A stretch of DNA of 20,000 bases, from IMG/VR virus record IMGVR_UViG_3300043786_001842. One strand, given 5' to 3'. This DNA comes from an uncultured virus (IMG/VR IMGVR_UViG_3300043786_001842) (lineage: Duplodnaviria > Heunggongvirae > Uroviricota > Caudoviricetes). The notes under the pieces were generated by a model that worked only from the letters and a program-made list of their open reading frames with translations, was not told the DNA's origin and did no database searches. Position 1 is the stretch's first letter; the number at the start of each line of letters is the position of its first letter. The translations under genes were made by a program, and so were the position numbers. Below are positions 1-20,000 of this stretch, one piece after another.

Positions 1-9
1 AGCGTTGAT

Positions 10-699
10 CTAACGGAAGTACTCGTCTGAGACTTTCTTCCAAATTCTCTTCGATGCAATCGTAGACACGTATCCTCGACGAATCCCTAGTTCTCGTTCG
101 ATTACTGGAGGAGTTTCACCAGCAGCCAATTTCAAACAGATCTGTCGGATCAAGGATTCGGGATATTTGCACATTGGGTGCTCAGTTCCAGAACGACGTC
201 GCACAAGACCATTTGCGACTGCATGCTGGACATTCTCTTTACCTGATACCCATTCGAGATTGCTTGCCGCATTGTTTCTTTTCGAACCGTCAATGTGATT
301 GACCTGGCTCTGTCCAAAACGCGGCTTAGGGAGGAAAGCTTCAACGACTAAGCGGTGCACGCGTTCACTTTTGCGTTCACCACTTTTGTCGTACATCTTC
401 ACCTGCATGTAACCCCGTCCATTGATAGTCTGAATCAGGAGGGTATCACCATTAGCTACTCGCCCGAGATTGCTGACACGGTAGCCGGGATGGTGCACAC
501 AAGGTTTCCAGTTCTCTCCAGGTAGCGTCTCAACTTGAGATTTGCGTATTGGCCGTCTCAGGTTGAGACGCTGGAGGAGACCAGTTACAGCACCGACAGT
601 TGTTTCCAACTCGTGTGCCATTTCTGGATTGGACTTGTGCAAGTAGTTTTCGGTGAGGAATGCTACATGCTGCGGATTTGATATGCTGAGTGACTTCAT
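10..699 (-). CDS. Intron-encoded NUMOD4-HNH homing endonuclease
   Basis: NUMOD4-like ENWKPCVHHPGYRVSNLGRV; HNH core VHRLVVEAF...VNHIDGSKRNNAASNLEWVSGKENVQHA; HTH-like C-terminus; GAGG RBS upstream of the ATG. Confidence 0.93.
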   Translation of the reverse strand: MKSLSISNPQHVAFLTENYLHKSNPEMAHELETTVGAVTGLLQRLNLRRPIRKSQVETLPGENWKPCVHHPGYRVSNLGRVANGDTLLIQTINGRGYMQVKMYDKSGERKSERVHRLVVEAFLPKPRFGQSQVNHIDGSKRNNAASNLEWVSGKENVQHAVANGLVRRRSGTEHPMCKYPESLIRQICLKLAAGETPPVIERELGIRRGYVSTIASKRIWKKVSDEYFR

Positions 700-713
700 T
701 TGAAAACCTCTGA

Positions 714-742
714 ATTATACCATATTCATTGGTTCTCAACAA
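714..742 (-). promoter_or_regulatory. Sigma70-like promoter for the HNH gene inside intron 3
   Basis: TTGTTG (742-737), 17 nt spacer, TATAAT (719-714) with an extended -10 TG, directly upstream of the RBS and ATG. Confidence 0.6.
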
Positions 743-894
743 TTAGACCCTTCGTTGCCGGTTGTCTCTACCTTCGCATTTTCAGGGGTCGCCGCTCCGT
801 CACCGGGCGGTATCCTAGCGATAGTCTAGCAAGACTTTCTGGCAGTTAGAGAAGTTCACAGCGCGGATCGCTCCGCGCAGCCGCTAATTTGCTA

Positions 895-970
895 ACGGTT
901 TTCCCTTGAGGCTGAAGATAGCCTGGGTTTTGCGATCACGCCCAAGGGCACAGCTGGAACCTGCACTATC
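895..970 (-). CDS. gyrB: Type II topoisomerase subunit B, exon 3 (76 nt, not in the ORF track)
   Basis: Translates DSAGSSCALGRDRKTQAIFSLKGKP, matching the GyrB TOPRIM segment DSAGGSAKQGRDR...QAILPLKGK; preceded by the intron-terminal G at 971. Confidence 0.92.
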
Positions 971-2198
971 CATTCATCTTTGACAGCCGGCGTTACTGAC
1001 TGTCGCCCGCATATTCGCGCGGGCCTCGCGGTCTCCCGCGAGATGAGACTATATCTTCGCCCCAGCGGGGCGTCTCCCGTTTCCCCGACACTCGTCGGGT
1101 ACGTCCTTTCGGACTAGTCGTTGAACCTTCGCCTGTTTTCTTACACGCGGGATTGCAGTCCCGCCCCAGCCTCACGGCGCCAGGTGGCCGGAGGGCTTCA
1201 GCCCTCGAAGTCCCCCTCGCTGTAGCCGAGGTAGGAAATGGCGTCATCTTTGCTGACGCGCACGGTGGCATTCAGAAGACAGTCGTGCTCCAGGATGACC
1301 GTCATGCCGGAGGTGCTGATGCGGTGGCTGGCTTCGATGCGGAATCGCGCCAGGGCGTCGTCGACGCCGTTGCGCTCGAACGTCGGAAACGACGCATTCT
1401 CGCTGTCGCCGAACTGGAAGTTCGTCTTCGGATGGCCGTAGTAGTTCAGGATGAGCCTGATCTTGTCCTCGGCGAGATACGGCGCATAGATTGCCTTGAT
1501 CTCCTTCACGGAGATGTGCTGGTTGCCCGGAGTGATTTCGCTGCGTCGGAACATCACCGACCGGCGCACCTGCTCGCGAAGCGCCTCTTCACGCTCGAGC
1601 GTCGCGACGAGTTCGCGAGCGATTTCCAGACGGGAGCGCGTGGCCGAGGAGGCCTGGCGCTCGCGGAGCTGGCGCTCGCACTCGATGAAGTACTTGCGAG
1701 CGGCGCGACCCCTCTCGTTGCGCTCCACCATGGCCAGTTCCTTGGCCATGTCGAGGCTGATGTGATAGTCGATGCGGTTCGATCCGCCGCCACGGTTTCC
1801 GACTGCGCTCCCGTTTTGGAGTGCAGTCGTAAAGTCTTGATTCTCAACGAATTCATACTTCTCGACCCGGTCCTTGATCCAGTTGGAGAAGTCCTTGCCA
1901 ACCTCCAGGAATGCGTGGAGCTCCCTGGCGTTCACCGTCGGGACCACTGCATTCCCGACCGGCTGCTCCGTCAGCTTCATAAGGATTTCGTCTTGTGTAT
2001 CCATATTGGTTCCTTCAAATTTCAGATAGAGGCCTCGCTGCAACGAGGCTGGTGGTGGTGTACAGGCGCTTGGCTGCTGATTTCCCAATCCCCACACTTT
2101 TCAAGCCGTCGCGCTCGCCCTTGCGGGCCACGCTGTGGCAGTGGGGCTCTCAGGGAGTTCCAGCAATTAGAGAGATTTTACGAGAGCAATGGTTACTT
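971..2198 (-). mobile_element. Group I intron 2 (IA2-like, 1228 nt) carrying an antirepressor-domain ORF
   Basis: Exon ends GAGGGU| and pairs with IGS GCUCUC (U.G at the junction). P AATTGCTGGAAC 2168-2157, Q AAATCAGCAG 2083-2074, R GTTCAACGACTA 1126-1115, S AAGATATAGTC 1057-1047. P7.1 GTCC-GAAA-GGAC, P7.2 CCCGAC-GAGT-GTCGGG, terminal G at 971. Removal restores IVEG|DSAG in frame. Confidence 0.93.
1198..2004 (-). CDS. AntA/AntB antirepressor-domain protein (268 aa) encoded inside intron 2
   Basis: VNARELHAFLEVGKDFSNWIKDRVEKYEFVENQDF...DYHISLDMAKELAMVERNERGRAARKYFIECERQL is the typical AntA/AntB signature, followed by a short coiled coil and an unrecognised C-terminal domain. Start moved to ATG 2004 (GAAGGA RBS) because the longer ORF overlaps the ribozyme core. 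Confidence 0.9.
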   Translation of the reverse strand: MDTQDEILMKLTEQPVGNAVVPTVNARELHAFLEVGKDFSNWIKDRVEKYEFVENQDFTTALQNGSAVGNRGGGSNRIDYHISLDMAKELAMVERNERGRAARKYFIECERQLRERQASSATRSRLEIARELVATLEREEALREQVRRSVMFRRSEITPGNQHISVKEIKAIYAPYLAEDKIRLILNYYGHPKTNFQFGDSENASFPTFERNGVDDALARFRIEASHRISTSGMTVILEHDCLLNATVRVSKDDAISYLGYSEGDFEG

Positions 2199-2462
2199 AC
2201 CCTCGACGATGAACAGCTCGGTCTCCGCGGAGTCCTTCGACGAGCAGTCCTTCAGCTTGCCGAAGTTCTTCATTCCGAAGACGCCGGCGTCCTGCTTTCG
2301 GACCTGCTCGCGGGCCTTCGCGGCCGCGACGCGGGCCTTCGCGGCGTTGATCGCACGCTGACAGAGAAGGCGCGCCTCCTTCGGATTCTCCTCCAGCCAC
2401 CGCTGCAGGCCGGCGTTGACGGTCTTCTGGACAGCACCCTGGGCGTCACTGTTTGACAATGT
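2199..2462 (-). CDS. gyrB: Type II topoisomerase subunit B, exon 2 (88 codons)
   Basis: TLSNSDAQ...WLEENPKEA...AAKARVAAAKARE...GKLKDCSSKDSAETELFIVEG matches the end of the GyrB/ParE transducer and the start of TOPRIM. Confidence 0.95.
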
Positions 2463-3753
2463 CCTATATTTAAACGGCGTTCGTTACTCACCGTCTAGTT
2501 CCAATCTACCAAATTCCCGTTCGGTCACAGACCATGGATCCATTCCACGCACTAGCACATCTTCGAGTACTTGAACCACATCGGAAACGTATGGGATCCG
2601 CAAGAGAGGATAGCCGCGCTCTTGACAGAAATTAGTCTTGAATGCGTCCCTTTCCTGCATCACCAACATGTCTACCTTCCAATTTGGCCCGACTATAAAA
2701 TGCTGGCGACCATCGTACTCGATGAGCAGCGATTCGTCAACGAGAAAATCGAACTTGAGTTGACGCTGAAAAACACATCCTTCCAATGCCACTTCACGTT
2801 CATACGACCGGCCATGGCTAGTCAACCAATTTTCGATAGCCTGCACTGCCTTAGATGTCTTATTCCTTAAAGCACAATACGGACATCTACAACCGCCTAG
2901 AAACAGGCCGGACGACATGTCAAATGTCTGCCCACATGTCTCATGTCTAAATTCGACCTTCTCCCTGAAATTGCGGTACTTGCCGAGAACTGAGTACTCA
3001 GTTCCGACCAGCACCGCAATTTCCCGAACGAAGTCGTCATGAGTGCGACGGTGTTTTTTGTTGCACTGCGGGCAGCCGGCATGTGGCTTACGGACACGAC
3101 GTAGCATCGTATTGGGCGAAATTTCCCATTCGTATCCACACTGATGGCGTGTCAGAATGGGCGTCATCGTGTTAACGTATTTTCCAAGCACGAGATATTC
3201 GCCAGGGAAGTGCTTCTCCAGCTCGGCCACGTACTCAGAGTGTGTCTTCCTGACCGCGTTCCCGCACTTCGGGCAGCGATCGCCACATACGAATCGACTC
3301 GGACGCATCTCGAAGATGTATCCGCATTCGATGTGCTCGAATCGGATCTTGTGATGGGTGGTTTGGTAGAGGTCGAGCAATCGATACTGATTCTGCCCGC
3401 GATCGCGGACTATCTCAGCAAATTGCTCGTGGGTCATCTTTGCCGGCATCCTATTCTCCTATTTAGAGGACAATCAAATGTTAGCGACGACAACCGGATT
3501 GGAACTACTTACAGTTTCCTGTAAGAGAAGACTATATCTTCACGGTATGACCGTGCTTCCCATTTCCGCACCACTCGGCGCGTACTCCCTCGCGGGATAG
3601 TCGTTGAACGTTCACCCTCGCGGGTGCTTCGCTGCTGATCGCCCAATCTCTCAACTTGTCGAACCGTCGCGCTCGCCGTTCCCGGCCACGCTGTGGTATG
3701 AGAGCTCTAAGGGGTTTCCAGCAATTAGAGAAGTTTTACAAGAGCAGTCATCT
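2463..3753 (-). mobile_element. Group I intron 1 (IA2-like, 1291 nt) with endonuclease ORF in the P9 region
   Basis: Exon ends AAGGGU| and pairs with IGS GCUCUU. P AATTGCTGGAAA 3726-3715, Q GATCAGCAG 3640-3632, R GTTCAACGACTA 3609-3598, S AAGATATAGTC 3540-3530. P9 CTTACAG-GAAA-CTGTAAG; terminal G at 2463. Splicing gives FKGQSKG|TLSNSDA, aligning with the GyrB-type FEGQTKTKLGNSE. Confidence 0.93.
2484..3449 (-). CDS. Intron-encoded endonuclease: three zinc-ribbon repeats plus a Vsr/DUF559-like (PD-(D/E)xK-fold) nuclease domain
   Basis: Three repeats of H..CG..F/W....CPxC, then YEREV...KFDF...LLIEYDGRQHF...RDAFKTNFC...GYPLLRIPY; AGGAG RBS. Confidence 0.87.
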   Translation of the reverse strand: MPAKMTHEQFAEIVRDRGQNQYRLLDLYQTTHHKIRFEHIECGYIFEMRPSRFVCGDRCPKCGNAVRKTHSEYVAELEKHFPGEYLVLGKYVNTMTPILTRHQCGYEWEISPNTMLRRVRKPHAGCPQCNKKHRRTHDDFVREIAVLVGTEYSVLGKYRNFREKVEFRHETCGQTFDMSSGLFLGGCRCPYCALRNKTSKAVQAIENWLTSHGRSYEREVALEGCVFQRQLKFDFLVDESLLIEYDGRQHFIVGPNWKVDMLVMQERDAFKTNFCQERGYPLLRIPYVSDVVQVLEDVLVRGMDPWSVTEREFGRLELDGE

Positions 3754-4800
3754 ACCCTTCGATTGTCCTTTGAAGACTGGAGAACGATGTCTGATCGCGA
3801 CGAGGACCATAACGCCCTCGAAGCAATCTGGAGCCTCGATCTTGAGGTCTCTTTCTTTCACCGAAACGAGATTGTTATTCTCGATGTATCCGCGCACGAT
3901 CTGCGGCAGAGCCATGCGAACGCCCTGAACATGTGTGCCGCCTTCAGGCTGACGAACGCAGTTGCAAAAGCCTTGGATGCTGTCGCGGCCATATCCGCTA
4001 GTCCAGGCTACCGCAATGGCGACCCGGATTTCGCTGTCCTCGGGATTTTCGAAGTGGGCGACTTTCTTGAAGAGCACCTTGTCCCCGGCCAGCGACTCGA
4101 TAAAGGCATCAAGACCTCGCTCTTCGCGAAAGACTTCGTCTTTCGTGCCGGTTTCGTCCTTCCACTTCAAACGCAGTGTAAGGCCGGGATTCAGATAGGC
4201 CCGCTCGCGCAGCATGCGCTGGAGGGCTTCCCGACCGGGAATCATGGAACTCGCATCCTTGAACACGATCGGGTCGAGGATAAACTCAATCTTGGTGCCG
4301 GTACGTTTCTTGTTTCTCTCCAGCACTGCGCTCTCGATGTCCCGGATGCGTTTGGCACTTCTGAACTCGATGGTGTGCTCTTGACCGTCGCGCCACACGG
4401 TCGCCTTCAGATACGTCGAGGTCGCCGTGACCGCCTTCAAGCCGGTTCCGTGTAGACCGCCGGAAATTCCATAGGACGTACCGAACTTTCCGCCTGAGTG
4501 AGCTTTGGTAAGAACGACTTCGAGGGTGGACAGACCGGGGTGCTTGGAGTGCTCCTCGACCGGGATGCCACGCGCCTCATCTTCGACACTGATGAGATGG
4601 GATGCAGCGTCAACGGAAATGGTGATGGTGCTTCCATGCCCATTCATGTGCTCGTCAATCGCATTATCGATCACCTCGCGCACCGCTACTGCCACCCCGT
4701 CATCATCCGCGCTTCCAAGGTACATTCCAACACGAGCCCTGATAGCATCGAGGATCTCCAAAGTGTCGATGTCTGCTGCAGTGTATGTCTTTTTCGACAT
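3754..4800 (-). CDS. gyrB: Type II topoisomerase subunit B (GyrB/ParE-like), exon 1: GHKL ATPase and transducer (349 codons)
   Basis: YTAADIDTLE..DAIRARVGMYLGS, EVIDNAIDE, DEARGIP, HSGGKFG..YGISGGLHGTG, GTKIEF, EGGTHVQG, PVFKGQSK; AAGGAG RBS. Gyrase versus topo IV-like cannot be resolved by eye. Confidence 0.96.
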
Positions 4801-4901
4801 GTGCTACTCTCCTTCGTGGACTGCGAAATTGCTAGTCTGATACAAAACAAAAGTAAGATTTTGATGCCAGTATCATTTCTCCTAAGTAAATTGATGGCCG
4901 A

Positions 4902-5042
4902 CTAACATTCGACCAGAAACCAGAGTGCGGCAATCACCGCGATAATGGTGAGCAGCCTCGAGGGAAGGTACTCAGCCAGGTGATCGCTGAAGCTGTAGCG
5001 CCCGCCGGACCACCGGCCGTGCCCGTAGTACGAGTCATCCAT
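4902..5042 (-). CDS. Small putative membrane protein (46 aa)
   Basis: MDDSYYG...LLTIIAVIAALWFLVEC; one C-terminal hydrophobic segment; start overlaps the end of the upstream small ORF. Confidence 0.55.
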   Translation of the reverse strand: MDDSYYGHGRWSGGRYSFSDHLAEYLPSRLLTIIAVIAALWFLVEC

Positions 5043-5453: not shown

Positions 5454-6950
5454 TTAGCAGACCTCGAAGTACTCCTCGAAGTCCACCAGCGCGATCACCC
5501 GCGCCTCACCCAGGTCCACACCCATGCCGCCGGGGCGGCGGGGTGCGATGACGACCTGGCGGAGGTCGGCGTCGACGCACTCGAAATCGAGCGCGTTGTA
5601 CAGCGGGCCGATGACGACCTCCCATACGACGCCCTCGTAGATGGCGCACTGGCGGGGCTGGTCCACTCCGGCGGCCTCGATGGTGCGCTTGCGCACCCCG
5701 AGGTTGGCCAGGCCGATCGCCGAGCCGTAGTGCGGGGGCTCGCTGATCTCGACCTCGACCTCCGCCTCGCCGGCCCGCAGAGCGGCGACGGCCTCGCCGA
5801 CGGTCGCCGTGCTCGTGCCACCCTTCGGCCGCTCACCTTCCTTCGCGGCCTTTCGGCGCGCGATGTGACCCTCCTTCTCCTCGCGCTTACTTTTGAGGAA
5901 AGAGTAGAGCGCGTCGGCCGCGTCGATGGCGTCGGCCGCGATCGCATCGATGTCCCGTTGAAGCTGGGCCATCCGCGCGTCGATCTCACTCGCCCGCGCG
6001 GGAGTCACCGCCTCGCCGGTCTCCCTGGAGGTGGATCGGAGGTTGACGTAGTCGCCGATTGTGGCTTCCACCTCCTCCTCCGTCCACTGCTCACCGTTTG
6101 CGCGGTCGGCGAAAACGCCGAAGACCTTGGCGCGAAGCACCGCGTTCTCCTGCGGCACGTTCGCCATGGTCTGGAGGTCTTTTGCCATGACCTCCATCCA
6201 CTCCATCATCCTCGACGCCGCCGAGCAGATGGCCGCGACGGGGAAACCGTCGTCGGTCCACCCGTCGTCGAGCATCGCCAGGAGGAAGTGGACCCCGATG
6301 TCGGGGCACGCGATGGCCTTCTCCCGGGCCACAGGAGAGCGGAGCGCGGCAATCGGCAGCCGCTTTGCAGCGTCTAGGCTTTCCAAGGCTCTTTCCGGCA
6401 GCTTTCCGGAGAAGCCTTGGAAAACGTCCAGACAGCTGGACGCCGCCCGCGGGCTGTCCGCGGGCTCGAGGGTGGGGTCAGCACCCTTCCTCGCCTTGAT
6501 CCGGACGAACTTCCCGTCCTGGGAGGCGGGAAGCTCCCCGAGCACCCGCTGGAAGAGGCTCTTCCAGCGGGTGGACTTCCGCTGGATCCCAACAACATCG
6601 GCCCGCATCAGCAGGTCGACGATGGCGACGGCCCGGCGGCCTGCTGACGGTTTGCCGCTGAGGTCGGCGAGCATGGCGGCAGAGCTGACCGCCATGCTCG
6701 CCAGAGCGAACATGTTGGGTAACTCGTATTGCCCGGCCACGTGGTCGGCCAGCACGGCCAGCTTCGCAACCGCGTCCCGGATGGGACGCAGCTGCGGGCG
6801 GGCGGCGGGCAGCGCCACCTTTTTCCCGTCCTTGGCCGCGAGGGCCAGAGACGGGGCTTTCACCTTCTCTTCGCGGCGACGGCGAGTCGCCTCGGCAACG
6901 GAGATGGTCTTGATCTCGCCAAGGTGGTTCTTCAACTCATGCAGCTTCAT
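5454..6950 (-). CDS. Hypothetical protein (498 aa)
   Basis: Long ORF; start placed at MKLHELK (ATG 6950) behind an AAGGAG RBS; followed by a terminator. No family recognised. Confidence 0.8.
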   Translation of the reverse strand: MKLHELKNHLGEIKTISVAEATRRRREEKVKAPSLALAAKDGKKVALPAARPQLRPIRDAVAKLAVLADHVAGQYELPNMFALASMAVSSAAMLADLSGKPSAGRRAVAIVDLLMRADVVGIQRKSTRWKSLFQRVLGELPASQDGKFVRIKARKGADPTLEPADSPRAASSCLDVFQGFSGKLPERALESLDAAKRLPIAALRSPVAREKAIACPDIGVHFLLAMLDDGWTDDGFPVAAICSAASRMMEWMEVMAKDLQTMANVPQENAVLRAKVFGVFADRANGEQWTEEEVEATIGDYVNLRSTSRETGEAVTPARASEIDARMAQLQRDIDAIAADAIDAADALYSFLKSKREEKEGHIARRKAAKEGERPKGGTSTATVGEAVAALRAGEAEVEVEISEPPHYGSAIGLANLGVRKRTIEAAGVDQPRQCAIYEGVVWEVVIGPLYNALDFECVDADLRQVVIAPRRPGGMGVDLGEARVIALVDFEEYFEVC

Positions 6951-6977
6951 TACTCTACTCCTTGTGAACGTGGAAAT

Positions 6978-7095
6978 CCCCTGTCCGCGTCCGGACAGGG
7001 GTACATCGGACAAACTACGGGCTCGGGTCGCGTTGGAACTCGCATCCCAAGTGAATAATATACTTTGATCCTTTGGGGGCTTTACGCCCCCAAAG
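6978..7095 (-). promoter_or_regulatory. Structured upstream region with two perfect 10-bp hairpins and a TATATTAT motif
   Basis: Plus strand CCCCTGTCCG-cgtc-CGGACAGGGG (6978-7001) and CTTTGGGGGC-tttac-GCCCCCAAAG (7071-7095); minus-strand TATATTATTCACTTG at 7062-7048 lies between them. Confidence 0.5.
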
Positions 7096-7162
7096 ATGAT
7101 GCATGAGGTCTCTAGAGGCCCGATGCCAGGAGGGGCATCGGGTGCGGCGGCGCGCGGTCGCG

Positions 7163-8134
7163 CTATCTGACCAGTCTCGCGAGCTCGTCGAGCATCTCGT
7201 CGCCCTCGCGCCCGTAGATCGGGTCGACGGCGTACGACGACATCACGTCGGCCCCCGCCTGGTGCGTGGACATGAGCGCGAAGAAGTATCCGGCGTCCTC
7301 CATTGCGAGCATGGACGGGGCGCCGTACAGAGACACGAATGTCTGGATGAAGCCGCGCACGGTCAGGCGAGAGGCCCACGGGGCGGCCTTGGACAGCGCC
7401 TCCAGGAACGCCCCGAGGTCGAGCGCGTACAGCTCTTTCTGAGAGGAGACTCCGGCGGACGCGGCCGCGTCCGTCTCAAACTGGGAGAGCGCGGCCCGGG
7501 CGGTGCCGGCGACGGTCTCGGCAGCCGTCGCGTCCGCCGTCTCGGTGGCAGCGCGCCCGAGCATCCCCACCAGGAAGTACTTCGCGAAGACGTACTTCAG
7601 CTGGTCGCTGCGCATCCGGTCCATCCCGGCACCAGTGATGCGGTCGGCCACCTTGTGCATCATTCGGGAATACACGGCGGCGCCGGTCTTGCCGAGTGGG
7701 AGGCTGGCGGAGATCTTGGGCCACTGGTCGTACGCGTCCACCAGGACCGCGCCGAGGGAGAGCATCCCGTACAGGCGCCGGGGGTCAACGGACGAGGCGC
7801 CCGAGGACGGAACATAGGGCGTGGCGTTCACGTACGCGAGCACAACATTGCCGTCGGGGCGGACCCGCCAGGCCGGGAGCATGGTCGGGACCTTCACGGT
7901 GTCGCGGTTGTTCAGCAGGTGGATGCGGTTGTTCGTGTACAGGCCGAGCACGCGCTCCTTGAGCGGGATGCGCTCGAAACGGCGGGACACAGCGCGGAGC
8001 GTCTCCTCGAGCTCGGCGTGGTGGATCGCGTCGCGCTCGATACTGAAGCGGGAGAGCTCCACCAGCTTCGACTGGTCGGGGGCGATCTGCTTTGCCAGGT
8101 ACAAGGCGGAGAAAGACTTGGGTGTAGGTAGCAC
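7163..8134 (-). CDS. Hypothetical protein (323 aa), possibly a conserved jumbo-phage protein
   Basis: Long ORF with globular-protein composition; start placed at GTG 8134 behind AGAGGA; no catalytic motif recognised. Confidence 0.8.
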   Translation of the reverse strand: MLPTPKSFSALYLAKQIAPDQSKLVELSRFSIERDAIHHAELEETLRAVSRRFERIPLKERVLGLYTNNRIHLLNNRDTVKVPTMLPAWRVRPDGNVVLAYVNATPYVPSSGASSVDPRRLYGMLSLGAVLVDAYDQWPKISASLPLGKTGAAVYSRMMHKVADRITGAGMDRMRSDQLKYVFAKYFLVGMLGRAATETADATAAETVAGTARAALSQFETDAAASAGVSSQKELYALDLGAFLEALSKAAPWASRLTVRGFIQTFVSLYGAPSMLAMEDAGYFFALMSTHQAGADVMSSYAVDPIYGREGDEMLDELARLVR

Positions 8135-14111: not shown

Positions 14112-14960
14112 TCACCCGTTCAGGGAGATGCTCGGGGCGGCGACGGACACTTTCTCCGAGCTGACTATCTCGATCGGGCCGGCGCTGGTTAGCCGGGTCG
14201 AGGCCGCGTTGGTGATCGTGACGTCACCCGTGTCCGAGATGACGATGTCGGACTTGCCGGTGTGGGTGCGGATGCGGATCTCCTTCGAGTTCTCGTCGAG
14301 TTGTACCAGGTGGCCCTTCTCCGTCTTGAGAACGATGCCGGACTCGGCGGCGTGGCCGATGACGAGCGTGTGGCCGTTGTTCCACCGGACGACGAAGCTG
14401 TTGCTGTCCGGGTTGTTGTCGATCAGCACGACGTTCCCGTTGTCGTGTTCGGCGAGGACGTTGACCTCGACACGCCTCTTCGCGTCCTTCCAGTTCGCCG
14501 CCGTCGCCTCCGTGTTCAAGCCCTTGCCGAGCTCGCGCCCGGCAAGGGCGTCGTCCACCACCGTCGGCGTGAACGGCATCCAGTACGGCTTGTTCGGATC
14601 CGCGCCCTCGAAGAAGCAGAGGACGACGGTGCCGACGCGGGGGACGCGGTGGCTCCCGCCCTGGTTTGCGGCGGTGGAGCCGTTCTCCACCAGCCACGCG
14701 CACGGCCTGGCCCAGATGTAGTTGTTGGTCTTCACCATGGACGGCAGCTTCAGCTCGGTCTGGTTCTCGAAGACCCGATCCTTCGACGCCTTCATCGATG
14801 GCGCCGGCTTCTCGGCGTCGTTTGGCGTCTCGGTCACCAGGGCCGGGATGAACAGCCCGAGGCGGCCCTCCAGCAGGGGGTCGTCGTTCTTGACGACACG
14901 CCCGCGGAAGAAGCCGGCGAAGCTGAGGTCCCGTATCCCGTCATTGAATAGCCCGCTCAT
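14112..14960 (-). CDS. Baseplate central spike, gp5/gpV-like (OB fold plus beta-repeat region)
   Basis: FRGRVVKNDDPLLEGR, WARP, PRVGTVVLCFFEGADPNKPYW, then beta-strand repeats; no lysozyme domain evident. Confidence 0.9.
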   Translation of the reverse strand: MSGLFNDGIRDLSFAGFFRGRVVKNDDPLLEGRLGLFIPALVTETPNDAEKPAPSMKASKDRVFENQTELKLPSMVKTNNYIWARPCAWLVENGSTAANQGGSHRVPRVGTVVLCFFEGADPNKPYWMPFTPTVVDDALAGRELGKGLNTEATAANWKDAKRRVEVNVLAEHDNGNVVLIDNNPDSNSFVVRWNNGHTLVIGHAAESGIVLKTEKGHLVQLDENSKEIRIRTHTGKSDIVISDTGDVTITNAASTRLTSAGPIEIVSSEKVSVAAPSISLNG

Positions 14961-15004: not shown

Positions 15005-15340
15005 ATGTTGTACAACATCTTCGGAAACAGCGCGAACTGGGACGAGCTACTGCTCGGCTACATCCGCACCATCGAGGTGGACCCCGACAAACTACCGGAT
15101 GCGCTGCGTCACATCGCCGAGGAAATCATCCTCGAAGACTACCCCGAGCGGAGCGGCTGCACCATCAAGGTGGCCACCGACGTCGATCCGGACGAACTCT
15201 ACGATGCCAACGATGTGAACGCGATCTTCGCCGACAACGATGCCGTGACGGCCTGCGCCACGGTGGACGGCAGCGCCGAGGACTACTCGCTGGTATGGGT
15301 CGCGGTCCCCCACTGGCTCACCACCATCGTCGTCGGCTGA
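15005..15340 (+). CDS. Acidic hypothetical protein (111 aa)
   Basis: AAGGAG RBS precedes ATG 15005; Asp/Glu-rich. Confidence 0.75.
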   Translation: MLYNIFGNSANWDELLLGYIRTIEVDPDKLPDALRHIAEEIILEDYPERSGCTIKVATDVDPDELYDANDVNAIFADNDAVTACATVDGSAEDYSLVWVAVPHWLTTIVVG

Positions 15341-15345
15341 GAGCC

Positions 15346-15465
15346 ATGCTCCGGCCGACCGCACAACCTGTTGTTCCAGCACCTGAAGGCGGAAGAAAAA
15401 CCGTGCTCCAGATCGAGATAGCGCCGCCGCGCAATCCTTCGCCCGTCGCCGGGGGCCGGCGATGA
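15346..15465 (+). CDS. Possible 39-aa ORF
   Basis: Fills the gap and overlaps the helicase start by ATGA; no clear RBS. Confidence 0.25.
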   Translation: MLRPTAQPVVPAPEGGRKTVLQIEIAPPRNPSPVAGGRR

Positions 15466-18119
15466 TCGACGACTCCATGCTGACCGAGGAGCAGAAGCGC
15501 GCCATCGACGCCTTCGCGGCCTGGTGGAAGCACGGCTCCGAGCACGGCTTCGGCGAGCGGCCGATCTGGAAGCTGACCGGGCCGGCCGGCTCCGGCAAGT
15601 CGACGATCGCCAACTTTGCGGTCGAGGCCGCCGGCATCCCGTCCGTCCTCCCGCTGGCGTTCACCGGAAAGGCCGCGCTCGTGATGAAGAGCAAGGGCCT
15701 GAGTGAGGCGAGGACCATCCACAGCGCGATCTACCTCCCGGACGAAGAGGTGAACGACACGATCCGGAAGCTCCGGAGCGAGATGATGGACGTGCGCATG
15801 AAATCGGCGCGCCGCCTCGATGAGACTCCGGAGGACTACGCCCTACGGAAGACCGCGGACGAGGCGAGGATCGCCGAGATCAAGGGTCAGATCACCAAGA
15901 TAGAGCTCAGCACGAGCGACCGCATGAATTGGATCCTGAACCCCAGCGGGCCGATGAGCCTGGCATCCCTCATCCTCGTCGACGAGGCGTCCATGGTCGG
16001 TGGGCGCGTGCAGCGGGATCTGGAGAGTTTCGGCGTGCCGATCCTCTATTTGGGCGACTCCTTCCAATTGCCCCCCATTGAAGATAAGAGCGACAAGGAG
16101 TTCACGTCCGCTCTGTTCGACCGCGATGGCCGGCCCCTCACGCCGGACTTCGGGCTCACGCAGATCCACCGGCAGGCAGAGGGGTCGGCCATCATCCGGC
16201 ACTCCAGGGACATCCGTCTCGGCCTGCCGGAGCAGCACTTCCGCGGCAAGATGGTCGGGGATCTCGGTGACATGGTGCTGCGCGTCGAGTCCTCCAAGTT
16301 GCGGATCGAGCACTACGCGGCCGCGCAGCAGGTCATCTGCGGCAAGAACGACACCCGCCACGCCATCAACGCCGCGATCCGGGAGTTCCTCGGGCGCTCC
16401 GGGCCGCTGCCCGAGGACGGAGACCGCGTCATCATCCTGCGCAACAACAAGGAGCACGGCCTGGTGAACGGCATGATGGGGGTCGCGCTCTCCGGCGCGC
16501 GATCGTACAACAGCAAGAGCGGGACGATCCGCTTCGACTGTGAGCTGGAGGACGGGCGGCAGATGGTCCTGGAGGCCCTCGAGCCGTACTTCTCGGCCCC
16601 TCAGAATCAGGACGCGCTCTACGAAAAGTGCCCCGCCTGGTCTCGGAGAGACAACCAGCACGTGGATTACGCCTGGGCTATCACGGCGCACAAATGCATG
16701 ACGCTGGACACGATCGTCCACACGGATCGCGGGATCATGCGGATCTCGGAGTTGGACAATGGCGCCGCCAGAGGGGAGTTCAAACCGCTGGAGGGTGTTA
16801 GCGTCGAGACCGGGACCGGATTGGAGAATGCGGCGTCATTCTACAACGAGGGCCCAGCCCCGGTGCTCCGCGTGGAGACCGCCCGCGGGTACTCCGTACG
16901 CGTCACTCCTGGACATCGCATATTCGTCCTAGGGGAGAACGCGGAGCTTGTCGAGCGTCTGGCGGCAGACGTCCGCCCGGGCGACTACGTGCCCATACCT
17001 CGCAGAACCAACGGCTTCGGCCCGGACCGCCAACCGCTGGGCTATGTGGACGAGGGCGGCTACCACAACGAGTCGTACTACACCTTGCCAGAGTTCATGT
17101 CTCCGTACCTGGCTGAGTTCATCGGCATGGTGGTCGCCGACGGCAGCGTCACTGGCAGAAAAGTGAATTACTGCAAGCACGAGCGCGAGCCGGTGGCTCG
17201 ATTTGCCGAGTTGGCAAACGTGCTCTTCGGCTACCGGGCTAAGGTCGTGGACCGGTCCAAGAACGGGTATGCCATCAACGACCACATGTGCGAGATCCAC
17301 TCGACCTTGATCCACCGCTTCATGGCCTCATTCGAAGGGGTGCTGCCGGACGCCAAGGACGTCCCGAAAGCCATCCTGCGGAGCAACAAGGAGTGTCAGA
17401 GAATGTTCTTGAAGGGCGTTGCGGAGGACGGCACGGTCAACGTCAGGGGCGGGCGCTTTGACCACATCGAGATCGAGATGAAGCGTGAGTCCATGTTTGA
17501 GAACGTCCGTGCAATGCTTCAGAACTTCGGGGTCCTCTGCTCGAGGTATGTGGACCAGAAAGGCTACTTCCGCCTGATGATCTACCGCGAGTCCGCCGTA
17601 CAGTTTCTGCGAGAGATCGGCTTCCATTCTCCGTCCAAGCAGGCCAATCTGCTGACGGCGGAAATCGGTGACCACTCCTACTCGCTGGAGGCATTCCCAC
17701 ACCTCGGTGGGGCGGTGAAGAAGCTGCTGAAGGAGAATCGTCTCAACAGGCAGAAGGTCATCCGACCCCCAACTCTGGGAGACTCGGCCACTTTCAACAT
17801 CGTGTCCAGAGTCATCGACCAGCTGCCGGAGTTGGCCGGACAGCCACTGTACGACAATCTTGCTGACATTCTTGCAAACTACACCTTCGACAAGATCGTA
17901 GCGGTCGAAGCCGATGGAGTGGAGAGCACGGTCTGCTTGGAAGTGCCCTCTACGGGCGCGTTCGTCCAGAACGGCATCCTTGCCGGGAATTCACAAGGGT
18001 CCCAATACACATCGGGCATTGTGCTATATGAGCCGCTGGGGCGAACGGATGAGCTCCGGCGGCGCTGGTACTACACCGCTATCACGCGGTTCGAGCAGAA
18101 CGTCATCGTGGCCTGCTGA
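15462..18119 (+). CDS. RecD/Dda-like SF1B helicase precursor with an intein (453 aa after splicing)
   Basis: GPAGSGKST, LAFTGKAA, RTIHS, LVDEASMV, GDSFQLPP, LTQIHRQ, AITAHK|SQGSQY, YTAITR. Confidence 0.93.
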   Translation: MIDDSMLTEEQKRAIDAFAAWWKHGSEHGFGERPIWKLTGPAGSGKSTIANFAVEAAGIPSVLPLAFTGKAALVMKSKGLSEARTIHSAIYLPDEEVNDTIRKLRSEMMDVRMKSARRLDETPEDYALRKTADEARIAEIKGQITKIELSTSDRMNWILNPSGPMSLASLILVDEASMVGGRVQRDLESFGVPILYLGDSFQLPPIEDKSDKEFTSALFDRDGRPLTPDFGLTQIHRQAEGSAIIRHSRDIRLGLPEQHFRGKMVGDLGDMVLRVESSKLRIEHYAAAQQVICGKNDTRHAINAAIREFLGRSGPLPEDGDRVIILRNNKEHGLVNGMMGVALSGARSYNSKSGTIRFDCELEDGRQMVLEALEPYFSAPQNQDALYEKCPAWSRRDNQHVDYAWAITAHKCMTLDTIVHTDRGIMRISELDNGAARGEFKPLEGVSVETGTGLENAASFYNEGPAPVLRVETARGYSVRVTPGHRIFVLGENAELVERLAADVRPGDYVPIPRRTNGFGPDRQPLGYVDEGGYHNESYYTLPEFMSPYLAEFIGMVVADGSVTGRKVNYCKHEREPVARFAELANVLFGYRAKVVDRSKNGYAINDHMCEIHSTLIHRFMASFEGVLPDAKDVPKAILRSNKECQRMFLKGVAEDGTVNVRGGRFDHIEIEMKRESMFENVRAMLQNFGVLCSRYVDQKGYFRLMIYRESAVQFLREIGFHSPSKQANLLTAEIGDHSYSLEAFPHLGGAVKKLLKENRLNRQKVIRPPTLGDSATFNIVSRVIDQLPELAGQPLYDNLADILANYTFDKIVAVEADGVESTVCLEVPSTGAFVQNGILAGNSQGSQYTSGIVLYEPLGRTDELRRRWYYTAITRFEQNVIVAC
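16695..17990 (+). mobile_element. Intein with LAGLIDADG endonuclease (432 aa)
   Basis: Begins CMTLDT, block B VTPGHRIF, LAGLIDADG-like IGMVVADGS and FLKGVAEDGT, ends TVCLEVPSTGAFVQNGILAGN before Ser+1; excision restores TAHKSQG. Confidence 0.95.
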
Positions 18120-18755: not shown

Positions 18756-19005
18756 ACTCGGCGGCTTCCGCAACGGCGGCTTCCTCCTGGAGGGACGCGT
18801 TATGCGCTTCCGCCAGTGCCCGCAGGCCGATTTCGCCCTGGAGCTTGATCTTATCGATCAGGCCCCGGACCTCGGCATGCGGCTGCTCGCCCAACTTGGA
18901 CAGAATGTAGTTGATCTCGGTGAGGTGCAGGTTCAGACCGAGGACGGGGTCCTTCAGGTGCTCGGGGAAGGAGGGCTGCTGCTGTTCGGCGGTGTTCTCG
19001 CTCAT
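18754..19005 (-). CDS. Small hypothetical protein (83 aa)
   Basis: L.L.L.EINYIL..LG..P..EV..LI.KI pattern resembles small proteins often found beside phage tail fibre genes (from memory, unverified). Confidence 0.7.
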   Translation of the reverse strand: MSENTAEQQQPSFPEHLKDPVLGLNLHLTEINYILSKLGEQPHAEVRGLIDKIKLQGEIGLRALAEAHNASLQEEAAVAEAAE

Positions 19006-19089
19006 GGCTTCATCTCAAGTGGGTTGGTAACGATGGGTTGTTGGATTGCCTTTGCCGTGAAAAGCGGCGCTCTCCAACAACTGATCTTC

Positions 19090-20000
19090 TCATTTGTAGA
19101 AGGCATAGACCGAGCCAGTTCCGGATGCATCAGATGGACTTCCAACCGCCACCATGCTTCCGTCCGCAGACAGGGTGATGGACGCACCGAATTGGTCGCC
19201 CTGAGCAGCATCGAACGCCTGAATGCGAAGTTGGCTCGGCGACCATGTGGATCCGGCACGGGTGAAAATGTACGCGGATCCAGCGGTGCTACCACCGGAG
19301 TTCGCCGCCATCTGCGCCCCCACCGCCAGCGTGTTCCCGTCGGATGTGAGGGCGACGGAGTTGCCAAAGTAGTTGTTGCTGGCTCCATCCAAAGCCTCCA
19401 TCCGAGCCTGCTGAGACCACGTCGTCCCGGAGCGCACGAACACATAGGCGGAGCCAACGGTGAGATTGGCTCCCACCGCCAGCGTGTTCCCGTCCAAGGA
19501 CAAGGCGACGGAGTAGCCGAACTGGCTGGAGGCCACCGGAGTCAGGGCTTGCACCCGTGCCTGCTGCGTCCACGTCGTCCCGGAGCGGACGTAGATGTAT
19601 GCAGCTCCAGCCTTAGTGGCCTCGGCACTTGTCTCGCCATATGCGCTGGCCGCCAGCGTGTTCCCGTCGGCAGACAGCGAGACAGAGGTGCCGAAGTAGC
19701 TACCCATGTTTGATGTCGCCTGTATCCGGGCCTGCTCCGTCCACGTCGTCCCGGAGCGAACGAACACGTACAGCGCGTAGATCCGATTGGCGGCGCCCGT
19801 CCTTCCCACCGCCATCGTGTTCCCGTCCGCAGACAGGGCGACGGAGGCACCGAAGAAATCTGTGTATGACGCGTCCGACGCCTGTACTCGGGCCTGCTCC
19901 GTCCACGTCGTCCCGGAGCGAACGAATACGTATACAGACCCCGCATTGCTACCGCCGGAGTTGTCGTCCCCGTTCGCCCCCACCGCCATCGTGTTCCCGT
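19090..20000 (-). CDS. FG-GAP (integrin-alpha-like) repeat beta-propeller protein, C-terminal part; probable virion/adhesion protein
   Basis: Repeats FG.SVALS.DGNT.AVGA...GS.YVFVRSGTTWT.QARV.A; ORF is open at the right edge. Confidence 0.88.
   Translation of the reverse strand, partial: GNTMAVGANGDDNSGGSNAGSVYVFVRSGTTWTEQARVQASDASYTDFFGASVALSADGNTMAVGRTGAANRIYALYVFVRSGTTWTEQARIQATSNMGSYFGTSVSLSADGNTLAASAYGETSAEATKAGAAYIYVRSGTTWTQQARVQALTPVASSQFGYSVALSLDGNTLAVGANLTVGSAYVFVRSGTTWSQQARMEALDGASNNYFGNSVALTSDGNTLAVGAQMAANSGGSTAGSAYIFTRAGSTWSPSQLRIQAFDAAQGDQFGASITLSADGSMVAVGSPSDASGTGSVYAFYK
19727..19926. repeat. 38-bp exact direct repeat within the FG-GAP gene
   Basis: CGGGCCTGCTCCGTCCACGTCGTCCCGGAGCGAACGAA at 19727-19764 and 19889-19926; shorter copies of CCACGTCGTCCCGGAGCG near 19417 and 19570. 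Confidence 0.9.

Follow-up and report, generated by a model that had tools for sequence, protein, structure and literature searches.

What does an intact gene do that sits in the canonical endonuclease slot of a phage group I intron without carrying a recognisable nuclease? An open reading frame (ORF) in a group I intron of a phage is assumed, nearly as a matter of course, to encode a homing endonuclease, and a native, uninterrupted ORF of this kind is significant whichever way its function is read. The question is raised by a 20,000-nucleotide stretch of an uncultured virus of the Caudoviricetes (IMG/VR record IMGVR_UViG_3300043786_001842), hereafter termed the window, in which a topoisomerase gene is interrupted by three introns. 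The second of them, intron 2, holds in its P6a loop a gene for a protein of 268 amino acids with an AntA domain. Here, we consider it fairly probable that intron 2 is a working intron, and that its passenger is a gene of the phage's own, of the Ant/Rha type, which encodes a regulator binding DNA or a partner protein. The intron would spread, if at all, only by means of the endonucleases encoded in the neighbouring introns.

The minus strand of the window carries between positions 1 and 4800 a GyrB-like topoisomerase II gene, the frame of which is interrupted by three group I introns or intron-like stretches (Table 1). As the reading frame breaks at 3754, resumes at 2462 and resumes again at 970, we read these segments as one gene with three introns. 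The two internal exons are short, comprising 264 nucleotides between introns 1 and 2 and about 76 nucleotides between introns 2 and 3. Exon 1 covers positions 1-120 of the 173 positions of the Pfam profile DNA_gyraseB and ends in ...QSKG, whose GGU pairs in P1, and the 3'-end of intron 1 was set by the continuity of this profile across 120|121. When aligned with solved GyrB chains, exon 2 corresponds to residues 378-463 and exon 3 to residues 464-487 of 8s7k_B, and to residues 340-425 and 426-449 of 6rks_B, respectively. Removal of intron 2 gives an unbroken host frame at 463|464 and 425|426 in the two chains. Since this junction is exact to the residue, intron 2 splits the catalytic Toprim motif E-G|D-S-A-G, and its splicing is required for the topoisomerase to be made. 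The 3'-boundary of exon 3 is less sharply defined and was placed by a possible P1 pairing, CCGU/GCGG. No relatives of exon 1 were found in IMG/VR, and a megablast search with window positions 1-5000 gave no match in the phage records.

The initial annotation of this stretch had described a complete ribozyme core in intron 2 and had proposed to examine it with covariance models. In the whole window, intron 1 is the sole match above the Rfam gathering threshold (RF00028 at 3783-3508, 79.2 bits, E 5.6e-19). The native sequence of intron 2 matches RF00028 with its 3'-half only (1191-1025, 24.4 bits, E 0.0036 in E-value mode) and remains below the gathering score of 50 bits, because an insert of ~930 nucleotides splits the core and the model cannot span it. 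We therefore took positions 2057..1141 out of the sequence in silico and aligned the resulting ORF-less form with intron 1. The two sequences are 72% identical over 255 columns, and the direct alignment identifies both halves of intron 2 as close copies of intron 1. The RNAalifold consensus of both introns comprises 74 pairs, all of which are standard in either intron (74/74); 50 are identical, one differs by a one-sided change, 23 by double compensatory changes, and none is broken. The core is thus complete as described.

Moreover, P1 covaries with its own exon (intron 1, AAGGGU/GCUCUU; intron 2, GAGGGU/GCUCUC), and a U.G pair marks the 5' splice site of both. Intron 2 ends in ...AAUG with a terminal G, an in-frame UAA follows two codons inside the intron, and the S element AAGAUAUAGUC is exactly conserved between introns 1 and 2. 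The presence of two hairpins, P7.1 and P7.2, between P7 and P3' of intron 2 suggests that it belongs to subgroup IA. The core shares 69-75% identity with annotated and unannotated introns of Pseudomonas, Serratia and Escherichia phages, including PhiPA3. Judged from these alignments, intron 2 is a paralogue of intron 1 within the same topoisomerase gene, and it would be expected to splice. A consensus scan for a sigma-70-like promoter or a terminator in intron 2 gave neither, though this consensus may not be the promoter type of the host.

The ORF is enclosed by the two strands of P6a (CGCCUGU/ACAGGCG); in intron 1 the same helix is capped by a GCGA tetraloop. Sequence reading and alignment thus bore out an intact ORF of 268 codons with a ribosome-binding site of its own at this position. 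The Shine-Dalgarno-like GAAGGA lies free in the predicted local fold, and the fold of the start-codon region equals its shuffles in stability (z -0.03). Neither a nuclease remnant nor a frameshift was found in the flanks of 57 and 61 nucleotides that connect the ORF to the ribozyme.

In line with the initial annotation, the N-terminal part of the protein contains a complete AntA domain (Pfam PF08346, 98.9 bits at a cut-off of 27; residues 24-96, profile positions 1-68 of 68). Matches to the PHROG families 'anti-repressor Ant' reached 2.9e-47, none of them extending past residue 145, and the look-alikes of the head in the ESM Atlas are Rha/ORF6N proteins. A tblastn search of the protein against 50,697 phage records returned 765 records, none of which spans 80% of the protein. 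Among 178 relatives in IMG/VR, similarity at the 80 loci retained is confined to the head, except in L011 and L012 (33% over residues 5-254) and in L049 (34% over residues 8-222). The window showed no repressor gene, and for the protein of intron 2 'antirepressor' is a family name only.

Table 1. Features of the topoisomerase locus, with the GC content at third codon positions (GC3) and the codon adaptation index (CAI). The CAI was computed against six genes of the window, which are themselves the reference rows.
Feature	Position	Strand	Remarks	GC3	CAI
Exon 1, GyrB-like type II topoisomerase ATPase subunit	3754..4800	-	ATG at 4800; Pfam HATPase_c and DNA_gyraseB		
Intron 1	2463..3753	-	ribozyme core 3753-3508, then 321-aa endonuclease-type ORF 3449..2484 after P9		
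Intron 1 endonuclease ORF				0.57	0.36
Exon 2, 88 codons	2199..2462	-	terminus ...ELFIVEG; DNA_gyraseB positions 121-172 of 173 (Pfam)	0.865	0.72
Intron 2, group I, ORF in P6a loop	971..2198	-	sister of Rfam-positive intron 1		
P6a 5' strand CGCCUGU	2062..2068	-	pairs with 1136-1130		
Shine-Dalgarno-like GAAGGA	2011..2016	-	6 nt 5' of ATG; read from sequence		
Intron 2 AntA-type ORF, 268 aa	1198..2004	-	AntA, predicted helical linker, C-terminal module; ATG at 2004, stop 1200-1198	0.81	0.64
C-terminal 139 residues, query and model	1201..1617	-	invariant His240 in motif H-[DE]-C-L		
P6a 3' strand ACAGGCG	1130..1136	-	pairs with 2068-2062		
Exon 3, DSAGSSCALGRDRKTQAIFSLKGKP	895..970	-	GyrB chain alignment; 3' end approximate		
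Intron 3, 5' part only (leaves window)	1..894	-	229-aa HNH ORF 699..10; P3/P4-like CUUCUCUAACUGCCAG		
Intron 3 endonuclease ORF				0.48	0.32
Window genes outside the topoisomerase locus			GC3 of candidate ORFs; CAI of the six reference genes	0.75-0.94	0.63-0.75

The C-terminal half had been described as unrecognised and as devoid of known homing-endonuclease motifs, and this description held in all libraries searched. No family in Pfam, PHROGs, NCBIfam or PADLOC matches it. None of the known homing-endonuclease families (LAGLIDADG, GIY-YIG, HNH/His-Me, His-Cys box, PD-(D/E)xK/EDxHD) matches any part of the ORF, the limits being E≤1 for Pfam, ≤0.01 for PHROGs and for PADLOC, and ≤0.1 for NCBIfam, and the Pfam, PHROG and NCBIfam searches likewise gave no transposase family, such as the IS200/IS605 one of an IStron. 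Employing residues 130-268 as query, HMMER retrieved 37 representatives at E≤0.001, 27 of them at ≤1e-10 and four at ≤1e-30. As assigned with Pfam, the heads of these 38 members (37 plus the query) are AntA in 17, Rha in nine, Bro-N in four and KilA-N in three cases; the nuclease-related domains T5orf172 and MUG113 gave one match each and nothing else of this kind was found. Given that the heads vary across the 38 members, we read the module as a C-terminal building block that is shuffled among phage 'regulator' proteins. The module comprises 125 amino acids (about residues 150-268) and, on these comparisons, is a new domain family, absent from the libraries of Pfam, PHROG and NCBIfam used here.

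An identity with KilAC/ANT (PF03374) was considered and rejected: Pfam gave no match at E≤1, and hhalign returned a probability of 0.1 when the 37-row alignment of the C-terminal family was compared with six KilAC-type C-termini; an Atlas feature score of 0.86 for KilAC likeness is a lead only. Other searches were negative within their scope. A word-index search with residues 130-268 returned the protein itself alone, tblastn searches with the module and with the C-terminus of a low-GC member gave no match in the 50,697 phage records, and a narrower alignment of eight rows matched no viral, genome or metagenome contig. The query P0009 gave no match in viral contigs and AntA-head matches only in metagenome contigs, and the query A6 none in genome contigs.

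The family alignment (37 rows) shows one histidine, His240 in the motif H-[DE]-C-L, to be the sole invariant polar residue of the module (37/37). Ala255 is likewise invariant (37/37), Cys242 is present in 33/37, and positions D/E241, K/R252 and E224 are conserved at 81%, 89% and 84%, respectively. Neither a second conserved metal ligand nor a known nuclease motif was found in this alignment.

To the domain content, structure prediction adds a candidate fold. A whole-protein AlphaFold2 (AF2) model from the single sequence was unusable (predicted local distance difference test score, pLDDT, 37.6) and was discarded; with the family as alignment, the C-terminal part was modelled at a pLDDT of 90.9 and a predicted template modelling score (pTM) of 0.77. 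Foldseek gave 0 matches in the PDB at E≤0.001, and the best match in BFVD was the KilA-N protein of Ralstonia phage Eline (E 8.8e-3, probability 1.00). In a VIA-align comparison with 48,161 chains, the top among the matches listed was pSK1 Par (Z 6.1, root-mean-square deviation 2.0 over 53 residues), accompanied by TorI (5.2), RacA (5.0), mycobacteriophage Xis (4.7) and proteins of the MerR family; a second VIA comparison with 997 chains agrees with winged-helix DNA binders. Residues 160-225 thus weakly resemble winged helices of the MerR/Xis type (Z 4-6). No nuclease, including those with a His-Me finger or PD-(D/E)xK fold, is among the matches listed for either set of chains, nor was one among the Foldseek matches. 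Correspondingly, the tail of the protein looks in the ESM Atlas like the C-terminal parts of Rha, KilA-N, BRO and antirepressor proteins and like HTH_17/MerR. The fold check proposed earlier thus revealed no nuclease fold within model residues 31-96, to which the matches are limited, and the modelled module probably binds DNA or a partner protein.

The gene shares its codon usage with other genes of the phage, though not with the two flanking endonuclease genes. In agreement with the initial annotation, the ORF is more GC-rich than the two neighbouring endonuclease ORFs, and the CAI values follow the same division (Table 1): the cargo of intron 2 is native in codon usage, the cargo of introns 1 and 3 is not. 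We also observed that GC3 falls to 0.52 in exon 3 and to 0.57-0.63 at the 3'-end of exon 1 (3754-3950), compared with 0.77-0.95 across exon 2; the exon stretches beside the low-GC introns that carry endonuclease genes may be co-conversion tracts from donors of lower GC content. Elsewhere in the window lie genes for helicases like DnaB and Dda, for an SbcD-like nuclease, for a dNMP phosphatase and for a virion protein, and this set points to a large phage of the lytic type. It has been seen in lake-water metagenomes only, comprising 21 runs. Several further ORFs of high GC3 lack a family assignment, namely an ORF of 641 amino acids at 5454-7379 on the minus strand (GC3 0.78; no PHROG family at E≤1e-4) and those at 14112-14960, 15092-15718 and 18802-19713.

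The module appears to occur more than once in this phage. The record pattern '3 contigs, longest 136,127, NCBI+JGI' is shared by the window protein and three relatives: P0041 and P0043, both with an AntA head and 53% and 50% identical to the ORF of intron 2, and P0005, which has a Rha head and aligns closely with P0041 at its C-terminus. As these patterns are identical, a phage genome of 136 kb probably holds four members of the family, and the similar C-termini of P0041 and P0005 suggest that heads were exchanged among paralogues in one genome. P0005 was not found in the window, where all family members tested (P0041 and P0043 were not searched) match 1201-2031 only.

Both neighbouring introns carry ORFs that are recognised as endonucleases. 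The intron 1 ORF of 321 amino acids matches phrog_559 'HNH endonuclease' (2.1e-67) as well as phrog_9084 'homing endonuclease' and phrog_7140 'intron encoded nuclease'. Although these PHROGs name an HNH or homing endonuclease, a Pfam HNH domain was not found in it, and the ORF may belong to a less common endonuclease class. Repeated treble-clef zinc-ribbon matches (2484-3449, minus strand), with DUF4379 just under the cut-off, and a DUF2726-like C-terminal stretch, likewise under the cut-off, were observed in the same ORF. The ORF of intron 3 matches Pfam HNH_3 (1.7e-8) and NUMOD4 (1.3e-7) and the PADLOC HEase profile (1.5e-15). The positions of the ORFs differ between the introns, being after P9 in intron 1 and in P6a in intron 2; that of intron 3 appears from the sequence to follow the P4-P6 region of its intron.

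Relatives of the AntA protein did not reveal a second case. A group I intron was found with Rfam at 0/20 of their loci, and the S element at 0/80. The only locus recovered for the C-terminal family, L086, holds a free-standing gene with a Rha head and no intron (no Rfam match at E≤0.01), located directly after the gene for the N-terminal half of a split DNA polymerase. The polymerase itself is of the family-B type (L086 3091-5777; G001:C1:4472-5842), with its halves on opposite strands ~5 kb apart on a low-GC IMG/VR contig; its relatives are only 25-27% identical, too distant for a presence/absence comparison. At other AntA loci we noted a type II hammerhead ribozyme (RF02276, 55.9 bits) at L011 3279-3366, ~2.6 kb upstream of the AntA-headed gene, and C4 antisense RNAs (RF01695, 52-64 bits) just upstream of the AntA genes at L005 5500-5584, L006 5583-5667 and L013 5019-5104. 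The immI region of phage P1 likewise has a C4 antisense RNA upstream of its Ant genes. No C4 RNA was found at the AntA gene of the window.

The arrangement of intron 2 is not confined to one assembly. In four lake runs of 2020, contigs agree without any mismatch with the ORF and with its two junctions to the ribozyme (e.g. 1975-2715, 1203-1681, 804-1151), and identical contigs were present in runs of 2020 and 2024. No contig joining 2199 to 970, as expected of an intron-less allele, was found in four DNA runs. Contig joints at 1134->2064/2065 and 1140->2067 have 21 letters on the shorter side, followed by unlike sequence; they were rejected as alleles of the locus and are read as other, ORF-less introns of the family. 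Lake contigs (X3, X5) match only the P4-P6 and P6'-P7 elements (1114-1140, 2064-2091), joined by 4-5 letters. From their sequences, ORF-less relatives of the intron family with a P6a loop of 4-5 nucleotides thus appear to be present in the same type of habitat.

How may these observations be combined? We propose that intron 2 is a functional, self-splicing phage intron of the IA type, whose P6a loop would house a complete two-module gene of the Ant/Rha/Bro/KilA class instead of a nuclease gene. In its predicted product, a winged-helix-like AntA head would be followed by a helical linker and by the C-terminal module, which probably binds DNA or a partner. The gene would have been captured from among the genes of this high-GC phage or of one like it. 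Translation would start from its own ribosome-binding site, either on the pre-mRNA or on the excised intron, and the protein could act as a sequence-specific DNA binder or regulator. Any mobility of intron 2 would depend on the endonucleases of introns 1 and 3, by co-conversion or by homing in trans over the exons of 264 and about 76 nucleotides. Spread by co-conversion with the flanking introns, one of the three options offered initially, is plausible because these exons are so short and both neighbours carry endonuclease genes. The option of a safe harbour for a regulatory gene fits best, since the protein has the ordinary two-module build of a regulator and the gene has native codons; the coupling of its expression to the topoisomerase transcript that this option included is hypothetical.

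Several points weigh against this proposal. The ORF lies in the exact slot where homing endonuclease genes sit, and the family is probably present in several copies in this phage, which is frequent among homing endonuclease genes; new endonuclease families, reportedly that of I-Bth0305I among them, were first recognised from unassigned intron ORFs of this kind. The fold matches do not exceed Z 6.1, a range in which only a common arrangement may be shared, and the last 45 residues of the model (about residues 97-139), which include the invariant histidine, were barely compared. The status of the relatives as paralogues in the same genome rests on record statistics and not on readable DNA, and a free-standing context is established for one family member only. 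Finally, no RNA run is among the 21 runs that contain the stretch, and it is from its sequence that we deduce splicing and expression.

The same locus has other readings. One of them, which we regard as unlikely, is that the H-[DE]-C-L module with its swappable AntA, Rha, Bro-N and KilA-N heads represents a new class of selfish phage genes that settle in introns and beside replication genes. Such a gene could be a new minimal homing nuclease or a nuclease-free binder of homing sites, and as a binder it could block or repress the intron-less topoisomerase allele of a competitor or recruit the nuclease of a neighbour. The phage would then hold about four copies, one of them inside a ribozyme.

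With a low probability, the protein is a homing endonuclease of a new family, in which AntA would recognise the target and the C-terminal module would cut the intron-less allele, perhaps with a His-centred beta-beta-alpha site. The P6a loop is the usual position of endonuclease genes in introns of the T4 td type, and the ORF in this loop has its own ribosome-binding site. His240 is predicted to end a strand, after which come a loop, another strand and then a helix, the three flanking positions named above are well conserved, and the structural matches leave out the C-terminal 45 residues. The probable four copies in one phage genome and the position of the L086 member behind a DNA polymerase gene fragment would also suit an endonuclease. 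However, the helix lacks a conserved second metal ligand (Asn, His or Asp), the family alignment contains no GIY-YIG, LAGLIDADG, HNH or (D/E)xK pattern, and the fold searches returned no nuclease. Where T5orf172 and MUG113 do occur, once each, the nuclease-type domain is supplied separately. Furthermore, the codon usage is native, unlike that of the two true endonuclease genes alongside, and the heads and build of the family are those of phage regulator proteins. The initial suggestion that the C-terminal domain is a new nuclease or maturase with AntA as its DNA-binding module thus found no support, given a weak likeness to winged helices and a single invariant polar residue, the histidine.

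Quite improbable, in our view, is that the ORF descends from a homing endonuclease which lost its nuclease domain and whose binding parts were reused as a maturase or, like CapR, as a repressor. Decay or change of function after fixation is described for intron endonucleases in reviews (PMC3984707). Likewise, according to PMC8096241, the DNA-binding domain CapR is a relative of T5orf172 homing endonucleases that functions as a repressor, and GIY-YIG domains are found together with Bro-N and KilA-N; the single T5orf172 and MUG113 matches among the 38 members are in keeping with such a history. In contrast, the ORF is collinear from end to end with two-module relatives that have no nuclease domain, 33/38 members match AntA, Rha, Bro-N or KilA-N heads only, the flanks contain neither a nuclease fragment nor a frameshift, and the codon usage is native.

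It is very improbable that the 930-nucleotide insert disturbs P6a to such an extent that intron 2 splices poorly and the topoisomerase is a pseudogene or rescued at a low level; splicing is deduced and the native sequence stays under the RF00028 gathering score, but none of the 74 consensus pairs is lost and 23 of them show compensatory changes, the three exons are all open and conserved, the arrangement recurs in the runs of 2020 and 2024, and the td intron of T4 is spliced although this loop contains its ORF.

The passenger interpretation and that of a nuclease would have different consequences. If the gene is a passenger of a working intron, the loop of a phage intron can serve as a neutral site for ordinary genes, with their expression tied to an essential replication gene. 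If it encodes a nuclease, an unrecognised endonuclease family with the very common Ant/Rha/Bro/KilA heads would exist, and thousands of 'antirepressor' annotations would have to be re-read. The locus is a clean test bed, as two of the three sister introns of this single gene encode classical endonucleases and the third does not.

Cargo other than endonucleases is already known from group I introns, as exemplified by mitochondrial rps3. Our searches of the literature on group I introns with antirepressors, on KilA-N, Bro-N and homing endonucleases and on phage topoisomerase introns gave no AntA-type ORF in a phage intron, and the available sections of PMC5714182, PMC6293099 and PMC6669764 describe none. 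Taken together with the relatives' loci, all 20/20 examined with Rfam and 80/80 examined for the S element being free of an AntA-bearing intron, the novelty of this arrangement claimed at the outset stands as far as the searches reach, and within them both the AntA-type cargo and the C-terminal domain family are new.

Among the well-known systems, td/I-TevI and nrdB/I-TevIII of phage T4 are closest in that a phage intron of the IA type resides in a gene of DNA metabolism. In td, as in intron 2, a stop codon in frame follows soon after the 5' splice site, and the ORF, looped out from P6a, is provided with a ribosome-binding site of its own. The td ORF, however, combines a GIY-YIG nuclease with a DNA-binding domain, whereas that of intron 2 combines AntA with a module that matches no nuclease. 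For T4, PMC2988022 presents co-conversion and homing in trans of an intron with a defunct endonuclease as established (nrdB intron, I-TevIII, MobE; collaborative homing). By analogy, a nearby endonuclease could carry intron 2, which has endonuclease-bearing introns at distances of 264 and about 76 nucleotides. The difference is that the resident ORF of nrdB is a decayed nuclease, while that of intron 2 is intact and of a non-nuclease family, and the mobility of intron 2 is a prediction from the analogy.

A non-classical cargo is also found in the IStron of Clostridioides difficile, which joins a group I intron of the IA2 type to an IS605 transposase, as described in PMC3984707. There, the transposase moves the element and lies at the 3'-end of the intron, whereas the cargo of intron 2 lies in P6a and includes no recognisable mobility enzyme. 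CapR of the Vibrio PLE satellite shows that a DNA-binding module from the Bro/KilA/T5orf172 world can work without a nuclease, as a repressor (PMC8096241). It is, however, a single domain of 15.5 kDa encoded on a satellite, and its likeness to the ORF of intron 2 is one of description only.

In its build, the protein is closest to Ant1 and Ant2 of phages P1 and P7 and to the Ant, Rha, Bro-N and KilA-N proteins in general, with which it shares the succession of a head (AntA in P1 and P7), a linker and a variable C-terminal module. It departs from the common Ant build in that this module is not KilAC/ANT. The Ant genes of P1 and P7 are free-standing and belong to temperate phages; the gene described here resides inside the ribozyme of a phage of the lytic type.

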